A DNA stretch of 64,000 nucleotides from a virus, in the IMG/VR virus record IMGVR_UViG_3300031951_000022, positions 93,713 through 157,712 of that record. One strand, given 5' to 3'. Below, in pieces: positions 26,613-64,000 of this stretch. The translations under genes were made by a program, and so were the position numbers. The first letter of the stretch is position 1. Each line of letters opens with the position of its first letter. The notes under the pieces are model-generated. The model was not told the DNA's origin. It saw only the letters and a program-made list of their open reading frames with translations, and ran no database searches.

Positions 26613-26640
26613 ATTATAAAAAGTGGGGCGTAGGTGTCAA
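26613..26640 (-). promoter_or_regulatory. Sigma70-type promoter upstream of ssb
   Basis: TTGACA (26640-26635), 16 nt, TATAAT (26618-26613). Confidence 0.75.
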
Positions 26641-29036
26641 GTTCTAGCTACGTAAGCCTTGTCTACAATAAGGCCATCTCCGCTCTTAGACTTTGACCCC
26701 TTAACAATAATAATATTTCCGACGAACAACAGGTTTTTGTATTCGCTATATTTTTCTGGAAAAAACACGATAGAGTCAATAGATCCCGTGGTGTCCGTCA
26801 TTGTAACGAAAGCCATTTCTGCTCCAGGATTTTTACCGGTTTTGGTTTTCGTAACATTAATAAAGTCTATCTCTCCACCAAGTATAAGATTGTCTTTTTG
26901 TGTTGTGGTTTTCAGTTCTTTGCAATTAATATTAGTCATACTAATATCATACATATCAATCTTAGAACAAGTAATAGAACAACCCAGCAACACATCCTCA
27001 GAATCTGCTAACCACTCAGGACTATCGTCTAGAGAATAAGGAGGATTATTTAATGACACTATCATATCTTGGATATTGCTTTTGCGGTTTTTATTAATTC
27101 TAGGCAGTCCTAGCAGAAACTCTAGACAGCCCTTTAAGTCTTTAAAAGAGACTAGATGCACACTGATATGCTCTATCTCTTTTTTGGTTAAGCTGCTAAT
27201 TAAATTATATTCAAATAGCATCTTATTGCGAGTCATAGGCAAAAAGCTTAAAGCTCCACTTTGTATCAAAGCCTTTGCTGCTGTAGAATTAATATTGTTT
27301 AATACCAAAAATAAAAACTCTAACCATGTTGTTTTGGTCAAGTCCATTTTAGATATTATAGATATTAGCTTATCATATACTGATTTGCCGACACCCTTAA
27401 TGTCTGTTAATCCAAAATATATAGTATTATTTTTTAAGATAAATAGCTCATTTTTGTTTCTAATATCTGGAGTTTTAACCAATACGTCCATTTCATTGGC
27501 GTTTTGAATTAACTCCTTAATTTCTGCTTGAGGATCTATTTTATCCTTAGCAAATCTTAAATATGATGCAAAAAAGATTTTGGGGAAGTGTGCTTTAGTA
27601 TAGGCGGATAGATATGCATTAATAGCATAGCTTACTGAGTGAGACTTATTGAACGAATATCTTTGACTCTTTTCGATCCAACTAAAAATCTGTTCTGCCT
27701 CATCAACTGTTACAATGCCTAGCTTTTGAGACCCCTCCAAGAACTTACTTTTGACCTTTGCCATTTCTTCCGGTTTTTTCTTACCAATAGCCTTTCTTAA
27801 CATATCTGCTTCTTGCAGATTAAATCCAGCTATAGCCTTAGTTATTTCCATAGCCTGTTCTTGATATACCATTTCCCCATAGGTGTTTTGCAAAGAGTCT
27901 TTCAGAGCTTCGTGAAAATAGTCCACAGACTCTAATCCATTTTTTTTGTCTATATAATGATTAGATACTGTTTTACCATCTCTCACAGCCTCAAGACAAT
28001 TATGAACTATTACATTACCAGCAATAAAATTGTGGTGGGGCGACTCCATAGATATATCATAAACCTTTTTATATCCAGTGCTAATTTTATCTATATAAGT
28101 AGCCCATTTACAGTCATCGCTATAAGATAGTCTATATTTTTTTCTTGCTTCTATAATAGTATCTATATCAATATTACCTTCTGAATATTCTCTATGATGG
28201 TTTGGACATAAATAACAAAGATTTTCAACATCATTATTGGTATGTCTATTTCCTTCAAGGTGATTAACATCTAAAGATCCTTTATCCCAATCACAAAAAA
28301 CACATCTGTATTCATAGTTTTGATAACATCTTAATTTATATGATTTAATACCATCAATATTATCAATACTAATTTTTGAAGAATGTCTGGATTTAATCTT
28401 TTTCTTTAATTTTTTGGTTCCGTTTTTCTTTCTTATAACCAATATCCTCATTCCGGGCTTCATATCTTTAAGCTCTACCCATCCATTAGGAGTTAAAAGC
28501 TTATGGTCATCTGTACATTCTACTTTATACCAATTGTATGGTAATGTATTAGTTTTTCTTTCATTAGTCTTTATCTTGATCTTGAAACATTCTTTAATAC
28601 CACTATCAATAATATCTAATATTTTGTTTGAAACTAATTTTTTAGACTTTTCATCATACGATATAATTCTGTCATATTGACGATCTTTAAATAGTTTTTC
28701 TATTGAAATAGTTTTATTTCTTAAACGACCATCGGTATGAGTATAATAGCCTACTAAGATCTTAGTATCTCCAGCAATACACCCAGGTCTCATAATACTA
28801 ATCAGGGCAGAAAGCTGCTCTATGTTTTCTGGCTTTAGTTTTTTAGCCATAGACCTTCCCAGTCTAGACTCTAGCTGAAAACAACCCTTGGTATTACCGT
28901 CAGATATAAGATCCCACGTTCTTTGACATTCCAGATTAATATTTTCTATAGAAGAATCGAACTTTATACTCAGTCCATTATTCTGCTCTACTATATCAAA
29001 GGAACATCCACAAGGGTATTGGTATTTTTTAGACAT
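26637..29036 (-). CDS. dnaE: DNA polymerase III alpha, C-terminal subunit (split DnaE), intein-containing
   Basis: GCFQLES, RPG, YQEQAM, ADMLRKAIGKK, YSFNKSHSVSY, GLTDIKGVG, C-terminal OB fold MAFVTMTD. Confidence 0.95.
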   Translation of the reverse strand: MSKKYQYPCGCSFDIVEQNNGLSIKFDSSIENINLECQRTWDLISDGNTKGCFQLESRLGRSMAKKLKPENIEQLSALISIMRPGCIAGDTKILVGYYTHTDGRLRNKTISIEKLFKDRQYDRIISYDEKSKKLVSNKILDIIDSGIKECFKIKIKTNERKTNTLPYNWYKVECTDDHKLLTPNGWVELKDMKPGMRILVIRKKNGTKKLKKKIKSRHSSKISIDNIDGIKSYKLRCYQNYEYRCVFCDWDKGSLDVNHLEGNRHTNNDVENLCYLCPNHHREYSEGNIDIDTIIEARKKYRLSYSDDCKWATYIDKISTGYKKVYDISMESPHHNFIAGNVIVHNCLEAVRDGKTVSNHYIDKKNGLESVDYFHEALKDSLQNTYGEMVYQEQAMEITKAIAGFNLQEADMLRKAIGKKKPEEMAKVKSKFLEGSQKLGIVTVDEAEQIFSWIEKSQRYSFNKSHSVSYAINAYLSAYTKAHFPKIFFASYLRFAKDKIDPQAEIKELIQNANEMDVLVKTPDIRNKNELFILKNNTIYFGLTDIKGVGKSVYDKLISIISKMDLTKTTWLEFLFLVLNNINSTAAKALIQSGALSFLPMTRNKMLFEYNLISSLTKKEIEHISVHLVSFKDLKGCLEFLLGLPRINKNRKSNIQDMIVSLNNPPYSLDDSPEWLADSEDVLLGCSITCSKIDMYDISMTNINCKELKTTTQKDNLILGGEIDFINVTKTKTGKNPGAEMAFVTMTDTTGSIDSIVFFPEKYSEYKNLLFVGNIIIVKGSKSKSGDGLIVDKAYVART
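27999..28781 (-). mobile_element. Intein (261 aa) with HNH endonuclease domain in DnaE-C
   Basis: Starts CIAGDTKI after RPG; block B CTDDHKLL; ends VYDI...HNFIAGNVIVHN/C; internal CVFC...NHLEGNRHTNNDVENLCYLCPNHH. Confidence 0.9.
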
Positions 29037-29730
29037 TTTCGTTCTTGGTGAAGGCGTTCTTAAACTTAATCTTTTGTCCCAAATTTCTATGTAACTTTAA
29101 AAATCTAATAATTATTTCAGCGGTATCTCTAACGTCCTTTAAGGCGTCGTGGGCACCTTCTTTGGAAATTCCGAAATAATCTCGCAAACTATCAAGAGTG
29201 TAGCTTTTTAAGTCATTATTATTTTCGAACCAATAAAAGATTAAATTCATACCATCAATAACATCTCTTGGATAAAAAATATCTGTTCGCCCTTCCTTAT
29301 TTAGGTTGCCGTACTTATTACTAAGCCGATCAACAATATGAAGGTCGAATCTGTTGATATTGTATCCCGCCGCAATAGGAGCGCTAAATTGGCTTTTCTT
29401 AGAACTTCTGGAATGATATTTATCCAGATAGTTAATAAACATCTTCCATGAGTGTTCTTGTTTTGGATATTGATGCCAAGCCTTTAAAACATCATCTTGG
29501 GAACACCCCTTAACTTTAGAGTGAAATTCCAAAATGTCGGTTTCGTATCTATGGTCTTTGTTATTTTCTAGAACTTCTGGCTTGAAATGCATATTAAATT
29601 CTGACCCATCAATAACCTCTAATTGTAGAGGATCTATCATAAGTGCAGCAATTTGTACAGGACTGCAAACCCTAGGATCAGAACCGTCTGTTTCAAAATC
29701 AAAAACGCAAATCTTATTATAGTTGATCAT
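29029..29730 (-). CDS. dnaQ: DEDDh 3'-5' exonuclease (DnaQ/epsilon-like)
   Basis: VFDFETDG, GYNINRFD, AHDALKD. Confidence 0.85.
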   Translation of the reverse strand: MINYNKICVFDFETDGSDPRVCSPVQIAALMIDPLQLEVIDGSEFNMHFKPEVLENNKDHRYETDILEFHSKVKGCSQDDVLKAWHQYPKQEHSWKMFINYLDKYHSRSSKKSQFSAPIAAGYNINRFDLHIVDRLSNKYGNLNKEGRTDIFYPRDVIDGMNLIFYWFENNNDLKSYTLDSLRDYFGISKEGAHDALKDVRDTAEIIIRFLKLHRNLGQKIKFKNAFTKNENV

Positions 29731-29902
29731 TTACTTCTACTTCTACATTGGGTGATAGAAACGTTGTATTCTTTTCATTTGCTGTTGCATGAGCATTGAT
29801 TGATCGACAGCAGCTTACTTTTACTGTTGCAGTCTTCTTATATTCAATACCTTTGTGTGTGAATGTTTCGCCTTCTGCAATTTCTGAAAACTTCTTAATC
29901 AT
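29717..29902 (-). CDS. Small hypothetical protein
   Basis: 61 aa, ATGA-coupled to dnaE-N stop, GGAG SD. Confidence 0.6.
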   Translation of the reverse strand: MIKKFSEIAEGETFTHKGIEYKKTATVKVSCCRSINAHATANEKNTTFLSPNVEVEVNDQL

Positions 29903-31783
29903 ATTTCTACTCCTTCTATTAAGAGATCTTGTATTGTCATAATCTTATCTAACATCGCTACGCCTAAAACATCAAATTTAATAATACCAATAGCTTCTAG
30001 GTCTTGCATTTCCATTCCGGCAATTAGCTGATTATTTTTACTATCAAAAACCATAGGACATAATTCGCTTAATGGCTCTGAACTAATAGCAATACCAGCC
30101 GCGTGTTTGGACTGATTAGACTTAGTTCCTTCTAATCTAATAGCCTGCTCAAACCTTTTTGCCAACGGCCCCTGTAGTTCTCCTTTGTCGTCAATATAGC
30201 ACCACTCCTTGAGCTTTTCAGAATTATTTTCTAAAGCCCAACGAATAATAGATGCCTCTCCAGTTTCTTCTTTCATTTCTTGTAGTTCATCTGCAATCTT
30301 AGCTTCATCTGGAATATTTTTAGTAATACGATTCATTTCTTCAAAACTAATATTACCATATACTCTTAATACGTCCTTAAGAGCACCTCTTCCCTTGATG
30401 GTGTTAAAGGTAACCATTTGAGATACTTTATCATGACTATACTTATCTTTGATATATTGAATAATTACTTCACGCTTATTAATAGGAACGTCAACATCAA
30501 TATCTGGCATACTAATACGATCTTTGGTGTTTCGGCCAGAATTATAAAATCTATCAAAGAATAGGTTGTATTTGATTGGATCAATACTGGTAATACCTAT
30601 TAGATATGATACCAGACATCCAGCCGCACTTCCTCGTCCCGGTCCCGGAAGCCACCCACTTGTTCGCACATAATTTACAATATCTTGTACTATCAAAAAG
30701 TAGCTACTTAAATTCGCCCCCTGTAAAACATCTAGTTCATATTTGATTCTATCTACATATTGTTGTTGATCGTCTTTTGGTATGATATTAGCAATTTTTT
30801 CTTTCCAGCCCTTACGACAAAGCTCTCTAAGATATTCTGCGTCATCAAAACCTTTCGGACAATCAAATGGAGGTAGTTTAGGCTTGCTTAGGATATCATA
30901 TTCTTCTATAAGACTAGCCACATATTGTGTGTTTGCTATTTCTTCTTCTGTATGCAAGGCTGCCATTTCTTCTTGAGAAAGAATATGGTAATTATCTGAT
31001 GTGAAAAAGCATCCCATAGGCACATCTTCGTCATTACTAATCTTACGACTAATTTCTGGAAATGTAGTTTTCAAATTGTTACAGAGCAAAATGCGCTGAT
31101 CAATAGCGTCCTCTTTACGACAATAATGTGCGTCTGGAGTACAAATAACTTTTGTATCTGTTTGCTTACCAATTTCTCTAATAGCTTTTGTAAGCTCTTT
31201 TTGTACGGTTAGATTTTCGGCATCCATTAGTTGGGCCTCTAAAAACACACCACTAAAGTGCTTCTTAAGATCTAAAACATGATTCTTTCCTAGCTCTAGC
31301 CAGTTTGGTTTGAGTTGATAATTATCCAGAATAGTGTCAGCTAGGGTTGATCCTAGATGTCCGGTGATAGCAATTAAATTACCGTCATTTAAAGCATAGA
31401 GGCTTTTTAGGTCTAGTCTAGGCTTATGATAATAATTCTCCGGTCTATTGGATTCTGATACTATACGAACGAGAGTTTTCCATCCATCATAGTTTTTAGA
31501 CAAAATTAGAAAATGGCTTAATTCTTTATTATGCTTTTCTTTAATGGTTGGATCATTGTCGCAAATATAAAGCTCACAACCAAGAATCGGCTTAATGCCA
31601 GCCTGTTTCATTGCCATATAAAATTTAACAGCACCGGCAATATTACCATGATCTGTGATAGCACATGCTGTTGCTCCAATCTCTTTGCATCTTTCTGCCA
31701 TTTGTTCTGGTTTAGATAGTCCATCCAAAAGTGAGAACATAGCCCACTTAGGAATGGACATGAAGCGGTATATAGTTGCTCAT
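29899..31783 (-). CDS. dnaE: DNA polymerase III alpha, N-terminal subunit (PHP + palm); frame interrupted by a 10-nt insert at 31741-31750
   Basis: TDHGN, GCE, DAHY, GPGRGSAAGCLVSY, PDIDVD, KHAAG, IKFDVLG; upstream 11-codon frame MSNYIPLHVHS (31783-31751) supplies the missing HxH motif; 624 aa if the insert is skipped. Confidence 0.9.
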
Positions 31784-31791
31784 GTCCATCC
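31719..31791 (-). other. Structured candidate recoding element (10-nt coding gap plus alternative hairpins)
   Basis: UCC UAA GUGGGCU AUG; 15-bp hairpin 31719-31759; competing hairpin 31751-31791. Confidence 0.65.
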
Positions 31792-32100
31792 AATTTTCTC
31801 CTTGTTGGCTACGACCTTCTCACATAATTTAATAAATATATGTAAAGGAAAGTCTAGTTTCATTTTATTAATATCTTTTTTGACCCACCAAACATTATTT
31901 TTGACGTATCCTTTAGAACTATCAATTCTATCTAATGACCCGTCTTTGTCAAGATCAATTTCTTCGCCTGTGATGGCACACTTTTTATTCTGGGTTTCTG
32001 TATAAAGTTTCCACAAAAATTCAATGGGTATGTAGCTATTCAGCCGAGCCAGGAGCCTTGTACTTTCCAATAGTATATCCCGGAACTGTGTATTCGTCAA
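31780..32100 (-). pseudogene. Free-standing HNH-type endonuclease, apparently N-terminally truncated
   Basis: FLWKLY..QNKKCAITG...SLDRIDSSKGYVKNNVWWVKKDINKMK; only the nuclease core present; ATG lies inside the upstream gene. Confidence 0.65.
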
Positions 32101-33079
32101 CTACATTTTCCATCCCCTTGAGTTGAATATCATGCTTAATTTGTTCGCACTTGGTCATTGCTGTATCAACAGAACACAACTGACCATCTCTATACTCAAG
32201 GATTGGTAGAACATGACTATTTTGAAATGTTGTTTTACCAAAATGACAAAGCTTATTACATTTCCAAGACTTATTTAATTGAGGGACTTTAGTGCTTTTA
32301 ATTGTTTCAAATTTTTGCCTAATCATATCTTCTGTTTTGGGCAGGTCGTTCTTATCGTAGCATATGCTAAATGCTCCGCCATCATTAATGAAATTAATTG
32401 TGAATATGATATGTTCTATTTTTGGATACAGCTGACTTACAGCATAATGATAAATTCTTAATTGGGGGTCATTATGTAATTTTGCTAAGGTTTTTTCTTC
32501 GCCAGTTGCCCAATCTAATCTACGACCAGTTTTCCAGTCTACAATTTCAATAGTATTATCGTCAATAGAGGTAATAAGGTCAATAGTGCCTTTAATAGCC
32601 AATTGTCCTTCTAGAATTTCTCCATCAATATTGTATTTATAATTAGCCCACGGCTTATTGATCACAATATCAAAGTGCTGCTCTGGCTGTAGTATGTTTC
32701 TCAACCTAGGGTCAAAGGATTTGTTGTGGTCTGTGATTGCTTTATAGCACCACTTGTGGCAGTCTTTAAAATCTTTAACATCCCACTCATGGTGTTTAAA
32801 CTGGGACGTATAATAATCATAGACCTGTTCAATAATATGGTCTAAATTATACTTGTCAACACTAATGTCTCCAAGAATATCGTCATTATATATTTTTTGA
32901 TTATTCTGTGTACATAGCTTAATATGGGCTAATATTTCTAATACCTTATGACAAATTGTGCCTTTATCGGCTTTAATTCCAGATGGCGAACGTATACCTA
33001 GGACATATTCAATAAAATACTGTTGAGGACACATAGAGTGTGTTCCATAAGAACTGCTTCTTAAATATGTGATTATAAT
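32036..33079 (-). CDS. Cas4/RecB-like PD-(D/E)XK exonuclease
   Basis: CPQQY, GTICHKVLE, KGTIDL, IVDWKTG, QLRIYHYA, C-terminal Cys cluster; probable ATT start at 33079 (first ATG 33034). Confidence 0.85.
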   Translation of the reverse strand: MIITYLRSSSYGTHSMCPQQYFIEYVLGIRSPSGIKADKGTICHKVLEILAHIKLCTQNNQKIYNDDILGDISVDKYNLDHIIEQVYDYYTSQFKHHEWDVKDFKDCHKWCYKAITDHNKSFDPRLRNILQPEQHFDIVINKPWANYKYNIDGEILEGQLAIKGTIDLITSIDDNTIEIVDWKTGRRLDWATGEEKTLAKLHNDPQLRIYHYAVSQLYPKIEHIIFTINFINDGGAFSICYDKNDLPKTEDMIRQKFETIKSTKVPQLNKSWKCNKLCHFGKTTFQNSHVLPILEYRDGQLCSVDTAMTKCEQIKHDIQLKGMENVVDEYTVPGYTIGKYKAPGSAE

Positions 33080-61201: not shown

Positions 61202-62104
61202 TTAGCTGTATTTATGATAAACTAGTTCTAAATTTATGGGAGTTAAAGAATATCCTTGATTGGATGATAACCTGTTTATTGCCTCATTAATTGCATTGTA
61301 ATGAGTAGTCATAAAGGGTCCAGCGGTGGGACTCAGCCAAGTGCTTATTAACACTAATTCATTGTCTATAATTAGAAATATGGGATTGCCGCTATCTCCG
61401 ACAATAATAGTTTCAGACCATTCTGGGTATGGATTTACTCCTCCGCTTGGACCGCTCATATTGTCAAAATTAATAAAGGTGCTTATGGTAGTAATAGTTT
61501 TGACCAAAGCCTTTTCTTCTTGATCTAACCCCACAGAAAGTAGACCGAATAGTTCAGATCCATTAATGTTTAAAGCCTGAATATAATCTTTATAGTTAGG
61601 CGGTAAAACTTTTGCTATTTTTATATTACTCGGAACGTCATTATCCAACAGTCCTATAGCTATATCGTTTGGAGCAAAATCATAGGCTATTAAATTTCTT
61701 CTAATTGCATTATTGTTTTCATCAACAAATATTATTGGGGTTCCACCGTTGGGCAGTATGGCCGTTGTAAAGTGCGTTGCTTGTATAAAGTGCCTGGTTG
61801 TGACTAGGGTTCCAGCGCGTTGCCACCAGTTTGCACCACTTCGTTGCGCTGGACTAAAACAACTTATATTTGAAACCCCATTGATCCAGCAGTTAGGATT
61901 ACGAACCCACGTTCCGGCATCACCAACTCCACCATAAGGATTTTGAGATGAATAAACTAGACGATCAGTAGCTGGGTTTTTACCAACCAATCTGTTTGCT
62001 GTACTAGAATTAATATGGTTATAAATAACATTTTTATCTATAGGAAGAAGATTATATCGTAATTTGTTATTATATAATTTATTTCCCCTAGTATAAAATG
62101 GCAT
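61202..62104 (-). CDS. Trypsin-like serine protease domain protein
   Basis: GTLVTTRHFIQATH (His), DIAIG (Asp), GDSGNP (Ser). Confidence 0.75.
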   Translation of the reverse strand: MPFYTRGNKLYNNKLRYNLLPIDKNVIYNHINSSTANRLVGKNPATDRLVYSSQNPYGGVGDAGTWVRNPNCWINGVSNISCFSPAQRSGANWWQRAGTLVTTRHFIQATHFTTAILPNGGTPIIFVDENNNAIRRNLIAYDFAPNDIAIGLLDNDVPSNIKIAKVLPPNYKDYIQALNINGSELFGLLSVGLDQEEKALVKTITTISTFINFDNMSGPSGGVNPYPEWSETIIVGDSGNPIFLIIDNELVLISTWLSPTAGPFMTTHYNAINEAINRLSSNQGYSLTPINLELVYHKYS

Positions 62105-63228
62105 TAGGCTACTCCTAATAAACCGCAGCCGTTGACTCCTCGTTTCAAAGGATATGGGGTTCTATTTTGGAATGTTACGGTTCCTTCGTATGTAGCTCCA
62201 GCCGATGTTGGATAGGCGAAAGAACTGTCGTTGAACGTGGCGTCGCCATTGACGGCGCCGCTGTTGTACGAAGCGTTGTTGAACGTGGCGTCTCCATTGA
62301 CAGTGCCGAAGTTGTTGTACGAATAGTCGTTGAACGTGGCGTTGCCGGCGATGGTGGCGTTGAAGTTGTTGTACGAATTGTCGTTGAACGTGGCGTCTCC
62401 ATTGACAGTGTCGTTGTTGTACGAACTGTCGTTGAACGTGGCGTCGCCATTGACGGCGCCGCTGTTGTACGAAGCGTTGTTGAACGTGGCGTCTCCATTG
62501 ACAGTGCCGAAGTTGTTGTACGAATAGTCGTTGAACGTGGCGTTGCCAGTGACAAAGGCACTACCGTCGTTCCACGAACTGTTGTTGAACGTGGCGTCGC
62601 CATTGACGGTGCTGTAGTTGTACGAACTGTCGTTGAACGTGGCGTCTCCATTGACAGTGTCGTTGTTGTACGAACTGTCGTTGAACGTGGCGTCTCCATT
62701 GACAGTGCCGAAGTTGTTGTACGAATAGTCGTTGAACGTGGCGTTGCCGGCGATGGTGGCGTTGAAGTTGTTGTACGAATTGTCGTTGAACGTGGCGTTG
62801 CCGGAGACGGTGCCGTTGTTGACCGCATAGCCGTTGAACGTCGCATCGCCGGTAACGGTGCCGCCGGTGGCCGCATAGTCATTGAACGTGGCGTCGCCAT
62901 TGACGGTGCCGCTGCTGTACGAATTGTCATTGAACGTGGCGTCTCCATTGACAATGCCATCGTTGACCGCATAGCCGTTGAACGTCGCGTTGCCATTGAC
63001 GGTGATGGTAATGCTGAAAACAGCGTAGTCGAAAGCAGGGTCATTAAGCGTCAGGTTCGCCACCGTTGGCGCACTGCCGCCGTTCGCATTGCACGTTGCA
63101 CTCAGCACAACGCTATCGCTGCTAGACGGTAGGGCAGAAGCCTGCGTGGTGAACGCATCGTCCGTCCACCAGTTGCCTAGAGTTGCCCAGTTGGTATTGA
63201 CCGCAGCGTTGTAATACAGAGTTGCCAT
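62104..63228 (-). CDS. Beta-helix repeat protein (GDATFNDxSYN repeats), fibre/adhesin-like
   Basis: About 16 tandem 16-18 aa repeats; N-terminal WATLGNW; GC-rich. Confidence 0.75.
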   Translation of the reverse strand: MATLYYNAAVNTNWATLGNWWTDDAFTTQASALPSSSDSVVLSATCNANGGSAPTVANLTLNDPAFDYAVFSITITVNGNATFNGYAVNDGIVNGDATFNDNSYSSGTVNGDATFNDYAATGGTVTGDATFNGYAVNNGTVSGNATFNDNSYNNFNATIAGNATFNDYSYNNFGTVNGDATFNDSSYNNDTVNGDATFNDSSYNYSTVNGDATFNNSSWNDGSAFVTGNATFNDYSYNNFGTVNGDATFNNASYNSGAVNGDATFNDSSYNNDTVNGDATFNDNSYNNFNATIAGNATFNDYSYNNFGTVNGDATFNNASYNSGAVNGDATFNDSSFAYPTSAGATYEGTVTFQNRTPYPLKRGVNGCGLLGVA

Positions 63229-64000
63229 TATATCATCCCCAGTATGTTAGAGTTGTTGATTCCGTATCTTAGTCGAGTTCCAAAGACTGTTGTTCCTATT
63301 GTTGTTTCAACTGTTGTATATGAGGCGTCGTTGAAGGTGGCGTTTCCATTGACGGTGCCGTAGTTGTTGATCGAACTGTCGTTGAACGTGGCGTCGCCGG
63401 AGACGGTGCCGAATTCGTTGCTCACAGTGTCATTGAACGTGGCGTCTCCATTGACAGTGCCGCTGTTATTGTACGAATTGTCGTTGAACGTGGCGTCTCC
63501 ATTGACAGTGCCGAAGTTGTACGAACTGTCGTTGAACGTGGCGTTGCCGGCGATGGTGGCGTTGAAGTTGTTGTACGAATTGTCGTTGAACGTGGCGTCT
63601 CCATTGACAGTGTCGTTGTTGTACGAACTGTCGTTGAACGTGGCGTCGCCATTGACGGCGCCGCTGTTGTACGAAGCGTTGTTGAACGTGGCGTCTCCAT
63701 TGACAGTGCCGAAGTTGTTGTACGAATAGTCGTTGAACGTGGCGTTGCCAGTGACAAAGGCACTACCGTCGTTCCACGAACTGTTGTTGAACGTGGCGTC
63801 GCCATTGACGGTGCTGTAGTTGTACGAACTGTCGTTGAACGTGGCGTCTCCATTGACAGTGTCGTTGTTGTACGAACTGTCGTTGAACGTGGCGTCTCCA
63901 TTGACAGTGCCGAAGTTGTTGTACGAATAGTCGTTGAACGTGGCGTTGCCGGCGATGGTGGCGTTGAAGTTGTTGTACGAATTGTCGTTGAACGTGGCGT
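62326..64000. repeat. Direct repeat of at least 473 bp (62326-62798 = 63528-64000)
   Basis: Read-through comparison found no mismatch at offset 1202. Confidence 0.85.
63228..64000 (-). CDS. Second beta-helix repeat protein, 5' end outside window
   Basis: Frame of ORF 63228..63425 stays open to the window edge with the same repeats; ends RYGINNSNILGMI. Confidence 0.75.
   Translation of the reverse strand, partial: ATFNDNSYNNFNATIAGNATFNDYSYNNFGTVNGDATFNDSSYNNDTVNGDATFNDSSYNYSTVNGDATFNNSSWNDGSAFVTGNATFNDYSYNNFGTVNGDATFNNASYNSGAVNGDATFNDSSYNNDTVNGDATFNDNSYNNFNATIAGNATFNDSSYNFGTVNGDATFNDNSYNNSGTVNGDATFNDTVSNEFGTVSGDATFNDSSINNYGTVNGNATFNDASYTTVETTIGTTVFGTRLRYGINNSNILGMI

Follow-up and report, generated by a model that had tools for sequence, protein, structure and literature searches.

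To our knowledge, programmed ribosomal bypassing is known from three sources: a single phage gene family (T4 gene 60), the terminase of a Streptomyces phage, and one lineage of yeast mitochondria. In T4, the nuclease gene mobA and the 50-nt bypass sequence of gene 60 form a cassette, and among Topo2L homologues repeated gains are seen, along with decay of the nuclease while the gap is kept (Manning and Atkins, 10.1101/2022.08.31.505936; the T4 cassette is also attributed to Bonocora et al. 2011, as cited there). The 5′ stem-loop of the T4 element lies 9 nt behind the P-site codon (10.1101/2024.12.09.627546). In the terminase gene of Streptomyces phage Hau3, ribosomes bypass 10 nt, as shown by mass spectrometry in E. 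coli with a stop codon opening the gap (PMC10732093). The byps of Magnusiomyces, as summarised in 10.1101/2022.08.31.505936, are mobile inserts of yeast mitochondria that ribosomes skip. On the nuclease side, free-standing endonucleases often cut at a distance from their own gene (PMC2988022), and PacI, which has a tyrosine in place of the catalytic histidine, is placed in group 20 of the His-Me finger nucleases (PMC5714182).

Here we describe a short coding gap in dnaE of an uncultured phage. The window (the whole 64,000-nt stretch of DNA that was analysed) makes up the final 64 kb of a complete genome of 157.7 kb. The gap breaks the PHP motif of dnaE between the HVHS and MFSLLDG codons, and deleting its 10 nt restores the HxHSxFSLLDG spacing. 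Literature searches turned up no description of this dnaE gap. The features of the locus are as follows; loci of related phages are given L-numbers.

32036–33034, minus: Cas4-like PD-(D/E)XK exonuclease gene (Pfam PDDEXK_1, E 3.5e-19), the host flank 5′ of the cassette
32024–32035, minus: 12-nt leftover of the 5′ spacer of the cassette, resembling the start of the L082 spacer
31780–32023, minus: start-less 3′ remnant of the nuclease gene, 80 codons (96% amino acid identity to residues 159–238 of L004/L081)
31798–31803, minus: dnaE Shine-Dalgarno (SD) sequence, assigned from sequence, inside the last nuclease codons (N-K-E)
31751–31789, minus: dnaE leader ORF of 13 codons, start at 31789, last codon the take-off Ser TCC (31753–31751)
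31754–31789, minus: RNA hairpin H1; the arm with the start codon (31789–31781) pairs with the HVH codons (31762–31754)
31741–31750, minus: coding gap, 10 nt, TAA stop first; putative landing triplet GCT at 31743–31741
31729–31749, minus: RNA hairpin H2; the gap (31749–31743) pairs with the F-S-L codons (31735–31729), landing and resume codons at the loop
31719–31759, minus: alternative helix H3; 31759–31752 pairs with the L-D-G-L codons (31726–31719)
29899–31740, minus: resumed N-terminal dnaE gene, PHP and Pol III alpha core (Pfam PHP, DNA_pol3_alpha)

Several aspects of this arrangement recall mobA/gene 60. A free-standing His-Me nuclease gene overlaps an element-encoded N-terminus, a homologous region replaces host codons, gains are repeated, and the nuclease decays while the gap stays. 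As in gene 60 itself, a stop comes right after the take-off codon, a hairpin opens at the stop and a stem-loop lies on the 5′ side. The T4 5′ stem-loop propels the slide (10.1101/2022.08.31.505936); H1 of dnaE would lie 5–12 nt behind the P site at landing, close to T4's 9 nt. The host gene, however, is dnaE rather than the topoisomerase large subunit, and insertion is at its 5′ end, leaving the gene unsplit, whereas the T4 element splits the topoisomerase gene with CTE and NTE. Gaps measure 5–12 nt in dnaE versus 20–50 nt in T4-type elements, and take-off is from Ser after 13–14 codons as opposed to Gly or Asp after about 45–46. Unlike in T4, many landings are near-matched, and the stop hairpin draws its 3′ arm from coding sequence beyond the landing site. 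The nucleases apparently differ in their active-site motif, a predicted PacI-type D-R...Y here and canonical HNH in MobA. Judged on these features, the dnaE cassette appears to operate in the manner of mobA/gene 60 without belonging to that element: the two differ in the gene invaded, the insertion site, the size of the gap, the take-off codon and, apparently, the type of nuclease.

Hau3 shares gaps of 7–10 nt and local RNA structure, but its bypass is triggered by the rare codon UUA, in another gene and with no nuclease, whereas dnaE has a true stop and a mobile cassette. Magnusiomyces byps are likewise mobile and skipped by ribosomes, but they are 27–55 nt long, have an unused codon instead of a stop, and have no linked nuclease. 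With PacI, the dnaE-linked nuclease shares D-R for D-H, a Tyr in the loop, an Asn in the helix and a preceding Cys motif; unlike PacI, it is 238 aa long, has an extra N-terminal HTH and Cys-rich beta domain, and apparently behaves as a homing rather than a restriction enzyme.

Results

The dnaE gene and its surroundings

In gap-free phages, the stop of the Cas4-like gene normally overlaps the dnaE start. In the window, the 12-nt spacer leftover, directly after the Cas4-like stop at 32036, lies at the deletion described below, and the nuclease stop codon (31782–31780) is followed by 29 nt and then the gap. The most likely dnaE start is the ATG located 8 nt downstream of AAGGAG, at 31789, rather than 31783; gene callers place the starts of gap-bearing polymerases wrongly. 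The N-terminal dnaE gene is single-copy and, other than the gap, dnaE is intact. The complete genome yielded no polymerase of family A or B, and no close dnaE was found in cultured phages (best 35%). Assembly error was rejected as the source of the gap: the same gap or a one-base variant of it occurs in L004, L089–L092 and L255, and 77 distinct cassettes were collected.

The polymerase is encoded in two genes, the N half ending at 29899 and the C half at 29036–26637 (minus), with a whole span of 26637–31789. Between the halves lie a 61-aa ORF and a DEDDh exonuclease gene, and no split-intein motif was seen at the break. The C half contains an intein with a canonical HNH domain at about 28780–27990 (minus; Pfam Intein_splicing, weak HNH_2), a second selfish element of the same polymerase. 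Elsewhere in the genome, a tRNA cluster (C1:53464–57554, outside the window) includes the unusual anticodons Ser(ACT) and Ile(TAT) and none for TCN take-off codons, and a GC-rich (51%) repetitive gene runs across the genome ends (window 62001–64000 plus C1:1–1100) against a background of 35% GC. Among bacterial genomes, the only match is an 8-kb contig from a Chitinophagia MAG (L272), with phage gene order; it is probably a mis-binned phage contig, and a weak hint of the host at most.

A predicted PacI-type nuclease

At the same place in L004 and L081 lies an intact gene for a 238-aa nuclease, 96% identical to the remnant over the shared part, which supplies the intact homologue that the first-pass annotation of this DNA had called for. 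DNA homology to the intact gene of L004 begins at 32023 and continues at ~95% identity through the gap. Missing from the window copy are the spacer, the start codon and the first 158 codons, which encode the HTH and Cys-rich beta domain; a comparison of 823 with 276 nt suggests a deletion of ~560 nt. Because the start codon and DNA-binding domains are lost, the window copy cannot home. The first-pass annotation had likewise noted no obvious DNA-binding N-terminus. A TTG at 32100 was rejected as the start of the remnant, since the first 26 codons from there are an alternative frame of the Cas4-like gene.

The remnant keeps all invariant core residues and gives a PHROG endonuclease match (E 1.4e-14). 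Invariant in the family are C173, D189, R190, Y197, N201 and K213. A family profile matches PacI (PDB 3LDY) weakly (E 0.005), with D-R and Tyr aligned, and Foldseek returned only weak HNH-domain matches, PacI among them (E 0.18; 14% identity in the structural alignment); a PDB search with a single nuclease sequence gave no match. We therefore classify the protein, by prediction, as a free-standing His-Me finger nuclease of PacI type (D-R...Y...N) and not as canonical H-N-H. Since the D-R-Y-N set is invariant in the family, the missing His is not decay; decay in the window consists of the 5′ deletion. The first-pass annotation had described a degenerate HNH gene next to the gap. The core with the motifs it quoted is there, on the minus strand with its stop 29 nt before the gap, and the gene is indeed a truncated remnant, but its predicted active site is of PacI type and not a canonical H-N-H. 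Whole nuclease genes have dN/dS values of 0.06–0.28, indicating purifying selection, and we infer that they encode active nucleases.

The top 30 phage matches of the nuclease include no T4-like record. A 151-aa ORF at C1:22154–22609 of the genome (outside the window) is weakly similar to the nuclease core (E 0.003–0.04). Related PacI-type nucleases (29–55% identical) lie 5′ of the Cas4-like gene in L100, L148, L152, L029 and L272, and those of L100, L148 and L029 form a separate clade on the tree. In L003, where 595 nt separate the Cas4-like gene from dnaE, the intergenic site holds a different gene, a canonical HNH one, and dnaE has no gap; this HNH gene appears to be a second invader of the same spot. 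In L267 and L270, the Cas4-like gene is broken near codon 170–186 by about 860 nt, perhaps an intron or intein.

Co-occurrence and mobility of nuclease and gap

A protein search blind to the gap found it in 15 of 80 related dnaE loci. When the nuclease was searched for instead, all 14 dnaE-adjacent matches (10 distinct) had the gap, and the nine nuclease homologues picked by protein search (46–68% identical) all lie directly 5′ of a gap-bearing dnaE; two remoter homologues (36–39%) sit at other places. About 35 metagenome pattern matches outside dnaE were dropped as chance. The 63 distinct gap cassettes comprise 9 with a whole nuclease, 5 with a 3′ remnant of 34–80 codons and 49 with none. The link is therefore one-way: the nuclease implies the gap, and the gap does not imply the nuclease. 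Co-occurrence across related phages, which the first-pass annotation had proposed as a check, thus holds in one direction.

The distance from the Cas4-like gene to the HxH codons is at least 41 nt in all 63 gap cassettes versus 17–23 nt in 34 of 40 gap-free loci. The 3′ tip of the nuclease gene is always spared by decay and is present in nuclease-less cassettes too. It persists because its N-K-E codons are the AAGGAG of dnaE and the codons that follow are an arm of H1. These patterns suggest that the nuclease decays from its 5′ end by deletions and that the window represents a half-decayed stage.

One exception is seen. In L017/L019, a start-less remnant of the same nuclease clade lies directly before dnaE with no SD, leader or gap. 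The motif there reads M-L-S-L-L-D-G, with Leu for Phe, and the remnant sits on a long branch; the gap of L019 may have been lost after the nuclease decayed. L007/L008 have Leu at the same motif position and no nuclease. The Leu alleles of both pairs are possibly resistance alleles or a revertant.

At all loci the cassette lies between the Cas4-like gene and dnaE. The travelling unit consists of the nuclease, a new ribosome-binding site, a leader of 13–14 codons, the gap and 25–90 nt of dnaE, and its DNA is 93–99% identical between phages that are ~75% identical elsewhere. L002 and L027, for example, are 99% identical in the cassette versus about 75% outside; between the window and L004, identity is 95% across the 120 nt preceding the motif and 93% across the first 60 nt beyond the gap, with both flanks at 58–83%. 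On a quick polymerase tree with many open forks, the gap is scattered, requiring 19 state changes, at least 7 of them forced by strong branches. Between gap-bearing L089 and L003, its gap-free sister, identity is 63% over the 30 nt where dnaE resumes and rises to 97–100% at 90–180 nt. The co-conversion tract would accordingly end 25–90 nt beyond the gap, the pattern that homing from a nearby cut should leave. Patchy spread at a fixed site with co-conversion of flanking DNA is the signature of a free-standing homing endonuclease, and nuclease and gap very probably form one mobile cassette. The co-occurrence, patchy tree and co-conversion uphold the earlier proposal of an independent analogue of mobA plus gene 60 in a C-family polymerase.

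What the gap does for the cassette is less clear-cut. The gap itself might block nuclease cutting by disrupting the target, as the first-pass annotation had proposed; we regard this proposition as evenly balanced. The cassette also recodes codons either side of the gap, with GTC and TCN fixed in gap alleles and mixed in gap-free ones, so recoding alone could give immunity. A different reading retains the cassette and the hop, and has immunity come from these rewritten synonymous positions or the cut site lie elsewhere, leaving the gap as a hitch-hiker or a control on polymerase level. The frequent cutting of free-standing endonucleases far from their own gene would accommodate it, as would L017/L019, where a remnant of the same clade and the F-to-L change are found with no gap. 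However, a whole nuclease of this clade was never seen without the gap, the end of the co-conversion tract places the cut nearby, and the L019 remnant, being start-less and on a long branch, is compatible with later gap loss. We consider this reading rather unlikely, though it is the strongest of the alternatives.

Reading of dnaE across the gap

Among the 77 cassettes the gap is 5–12 nt long, mostly 9–11, and falls in all three frames, which eliminates stop readthrough and a fixed frameshift. No gap longer than 12 nt was found in viral contigs over the lengths scanned, which stop short of 68 nt. The gap opens with TAA, TAG or TGA in 77/77; most search patterns required a stop, but stop-first gaps are also found in 15/15 loci from the unbiased protein search and 9/9 from the nuclease-first search. 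The leader has 13 or 14 codons in 73/73 cassettes, and 71/73 have an SD-like motif 6–12 nt 5′ of the start, which is kept after nuclease loss.

The landing triplet is TCN in 48/77 cassettes and something other than Ser TCN in 29, including the window with GCT. In all 45 distinct gaps, the last triplet matches the take-off Ser codon at 2–3 positions counting wobble: the window pairs take-off TCC with landing GCT, and the rare take-off TCG goes with TCG in L169 and ACG in L269. Most neighbouring triplets almost never match the take-off codon; matches are frequent only at offsets +2 and +4, where the triplets are out of frame and share bases with the resume His codon. There is no consistent mini-SD before the landing site. 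L038 and L169, whose gaps of 6 and 7 nt are the shortest that are matched, have lost H2 together with part of H3 while keeping H1, the stop and an exact landing codon, so that by sequence they look like natural minimal 'stop-hop' versions.

Three helices are predicted around the gap. In H1, the first three codons pair with the HxH codons; core pairs are present in 72–73 of 73 cassettes with A-U/G-C covariation, and a scan leaving H1 bases free turned up fully compensated H1 variants with HCH (L268, L269, L271). The leader folding energy is −19.2 kcal/mol in gap alleles versus −4.5 in gap-free ones. In H2, which opens at the stop, the gap is base-paired to the Y/F-S-L codons, and three different pair types occur at the third position of the Ser codon. 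Watson-Crick pairs number 293/348 in H2 versus a shuffled-partner mean of 248 and maximum of 266 (5000 shuffles; the statistic ignores kinship). H3 is complete (8/8 pairs) in 66/73 gap cassettes versus 1/40 gap-free loci; it lengthens H2 and is mutually exclusive with H1, the energies of H3 and H1 being about equal. A P1-like helix in the window was discarded, as it is not kept by compensation in relatives.

Traits of the bypass class are thus present, namely a stop directly after take-off and conserved stem-loops at and 5′ of take-off with compensatory changes. Several features count against bypass: 29/77 landing triplets, that of the window included, are not Ser TCN, no consistent mini-SD precedes landing, the T4 nascent-peptide signal is far longer than the leader here, and the start codon is hidden within H1, which calls for an explanation of initiation. 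On the sequence evidence as a whole, programmed ribosomal bypass of the gap is nonetheless likely.

Alternatively, nothing is joined: translation of the leader terminates at the stop and that of the polymerase begins anew downstream, so that the polymerase does without the first PHP strand or receives it in trans. The window does have an ATG directly after the gap, 33/73 cassettes have an in-frame NTG before the Y/F codon, and a separate DEDDh proofreader could make PHP activity dispensable. But the other 40/73 have no such start, all other PHP ligand motifs are kept (56/56 gap alleles), and matched landing triplets would go unexplained. Moreover, the resume codon is His in 53/73, and this codon and the Y-x-P-L codons of the leader vary synonymously in unpaired loops, which argues that both sides of the gap are read as protein. 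Re-initiation is improbable.

Marginally less probable again is removal of the gap from the RNA as a micro-intron, by a trans-acting ribozyme or a nuclease-ligase. Phage group I introns have a stop just inside the insert, as here, and the RNA at the gap is structured; furthermore, a cut placed one base into the Ser codon restores an intact motif in 75/77 cassettes, and the genome contains an RNA-ligase-like ORF (an unannotated guess). Yet no fixed register combines an intact motif with a terminal G (best 39/77), and an Rfam search of the window gave no match, so neither a ribozyme nor a group I catalytic core was detected. Longer versions, of 29–56 nt, were not found in viral contigs, gaps of 5–7 nt are too short for a bulge-helix-bulge intron, and third-position covariation of take-off and landing triplets would be left without a cause. 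Finally, that remnant and gap are chance neighbours, or dnaE a pseudogene, is very improbable and largely refuted: 49/63 gap cassettes lack the nuclease and related nucleases occur at other sites (L093, L094, L100, L148, L274), but nuclease-less cassettes retain its 3′ tip, one high-identity tract spans nuclease and gap, the nine homologues were independent picks, and the polymerase gene is otherwise intact and single-copy.

Discussion

The account that we favor combines homing, immunity, bypass and nuclease decay, and taken whole it is reasonably probable, somewhat less so than bypass by itself. A homing endonuclease of PacI type would insert between the Cas4-like gene and dnaE, swapping the first 20–45 dnaE codons for the element's own version, which by comparison has a ribosome-binding site in the last nuclease codons, a 13–14-codon leader, a stop-first gap and recoded flanks. 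The intact enzyme probably cuts gap-free alleles near the PHP motif, and recombination would then copy the cassette into them; immunity of the resident allele would come from the gap, the recoded codons or both. During translation, the ribosome would pause with peptidyl-tRNA-Ser on the take-off codon while H2 masks the stop. H1 would then refold behind the ribosome and push it about 10 nt forward, and the tRNA would re-pair at a matched or near-matched triplet, whereupon decoding resumes and DnaE is made. H1 reaches as far as the take-off codon and therefore cannot close completely until the ribosome has advanced by about the length of the gap. Closure of H1 may in this way set the narrow range of gap lengths and permit near-matched landing. 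After spread, 5′-end deletions would erode the nuclease while its 3′ tip stays.

More tentatively, as an idea that we hold to be somewhat short of probable, the cassette may represent a minimal bypass device independent of T4, in which hairpin refolding measures a slide of 5–12 nt with nearly no nascent peptide and no exact landing match. A PacI-type homing endonuclease, against which the device also shields, would have carried it from replicase gene to replicase gene across a large group of uncultured aquatic phages. The H1/H3 switch over the start codon may in addition gate the polymerase level.

If bypass is correct, these phages carry an unrelated bypass family in an essential replicase, with more than 70 natural variants in about 90 nt of RNA. 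An element of ~90 nt is small enough for complete mutagenesis and for ribosome structures. Its variants would test directly whether the slide is driven by a hairpin that refolds behind the ribosome, and how little re-pairing by the tRNA suffices for landing. The locus also points to a homing role for PacI-type nucleases, and suggests that a nuclease plus a coding gap is a recurring route of selfish elements into essential genes.
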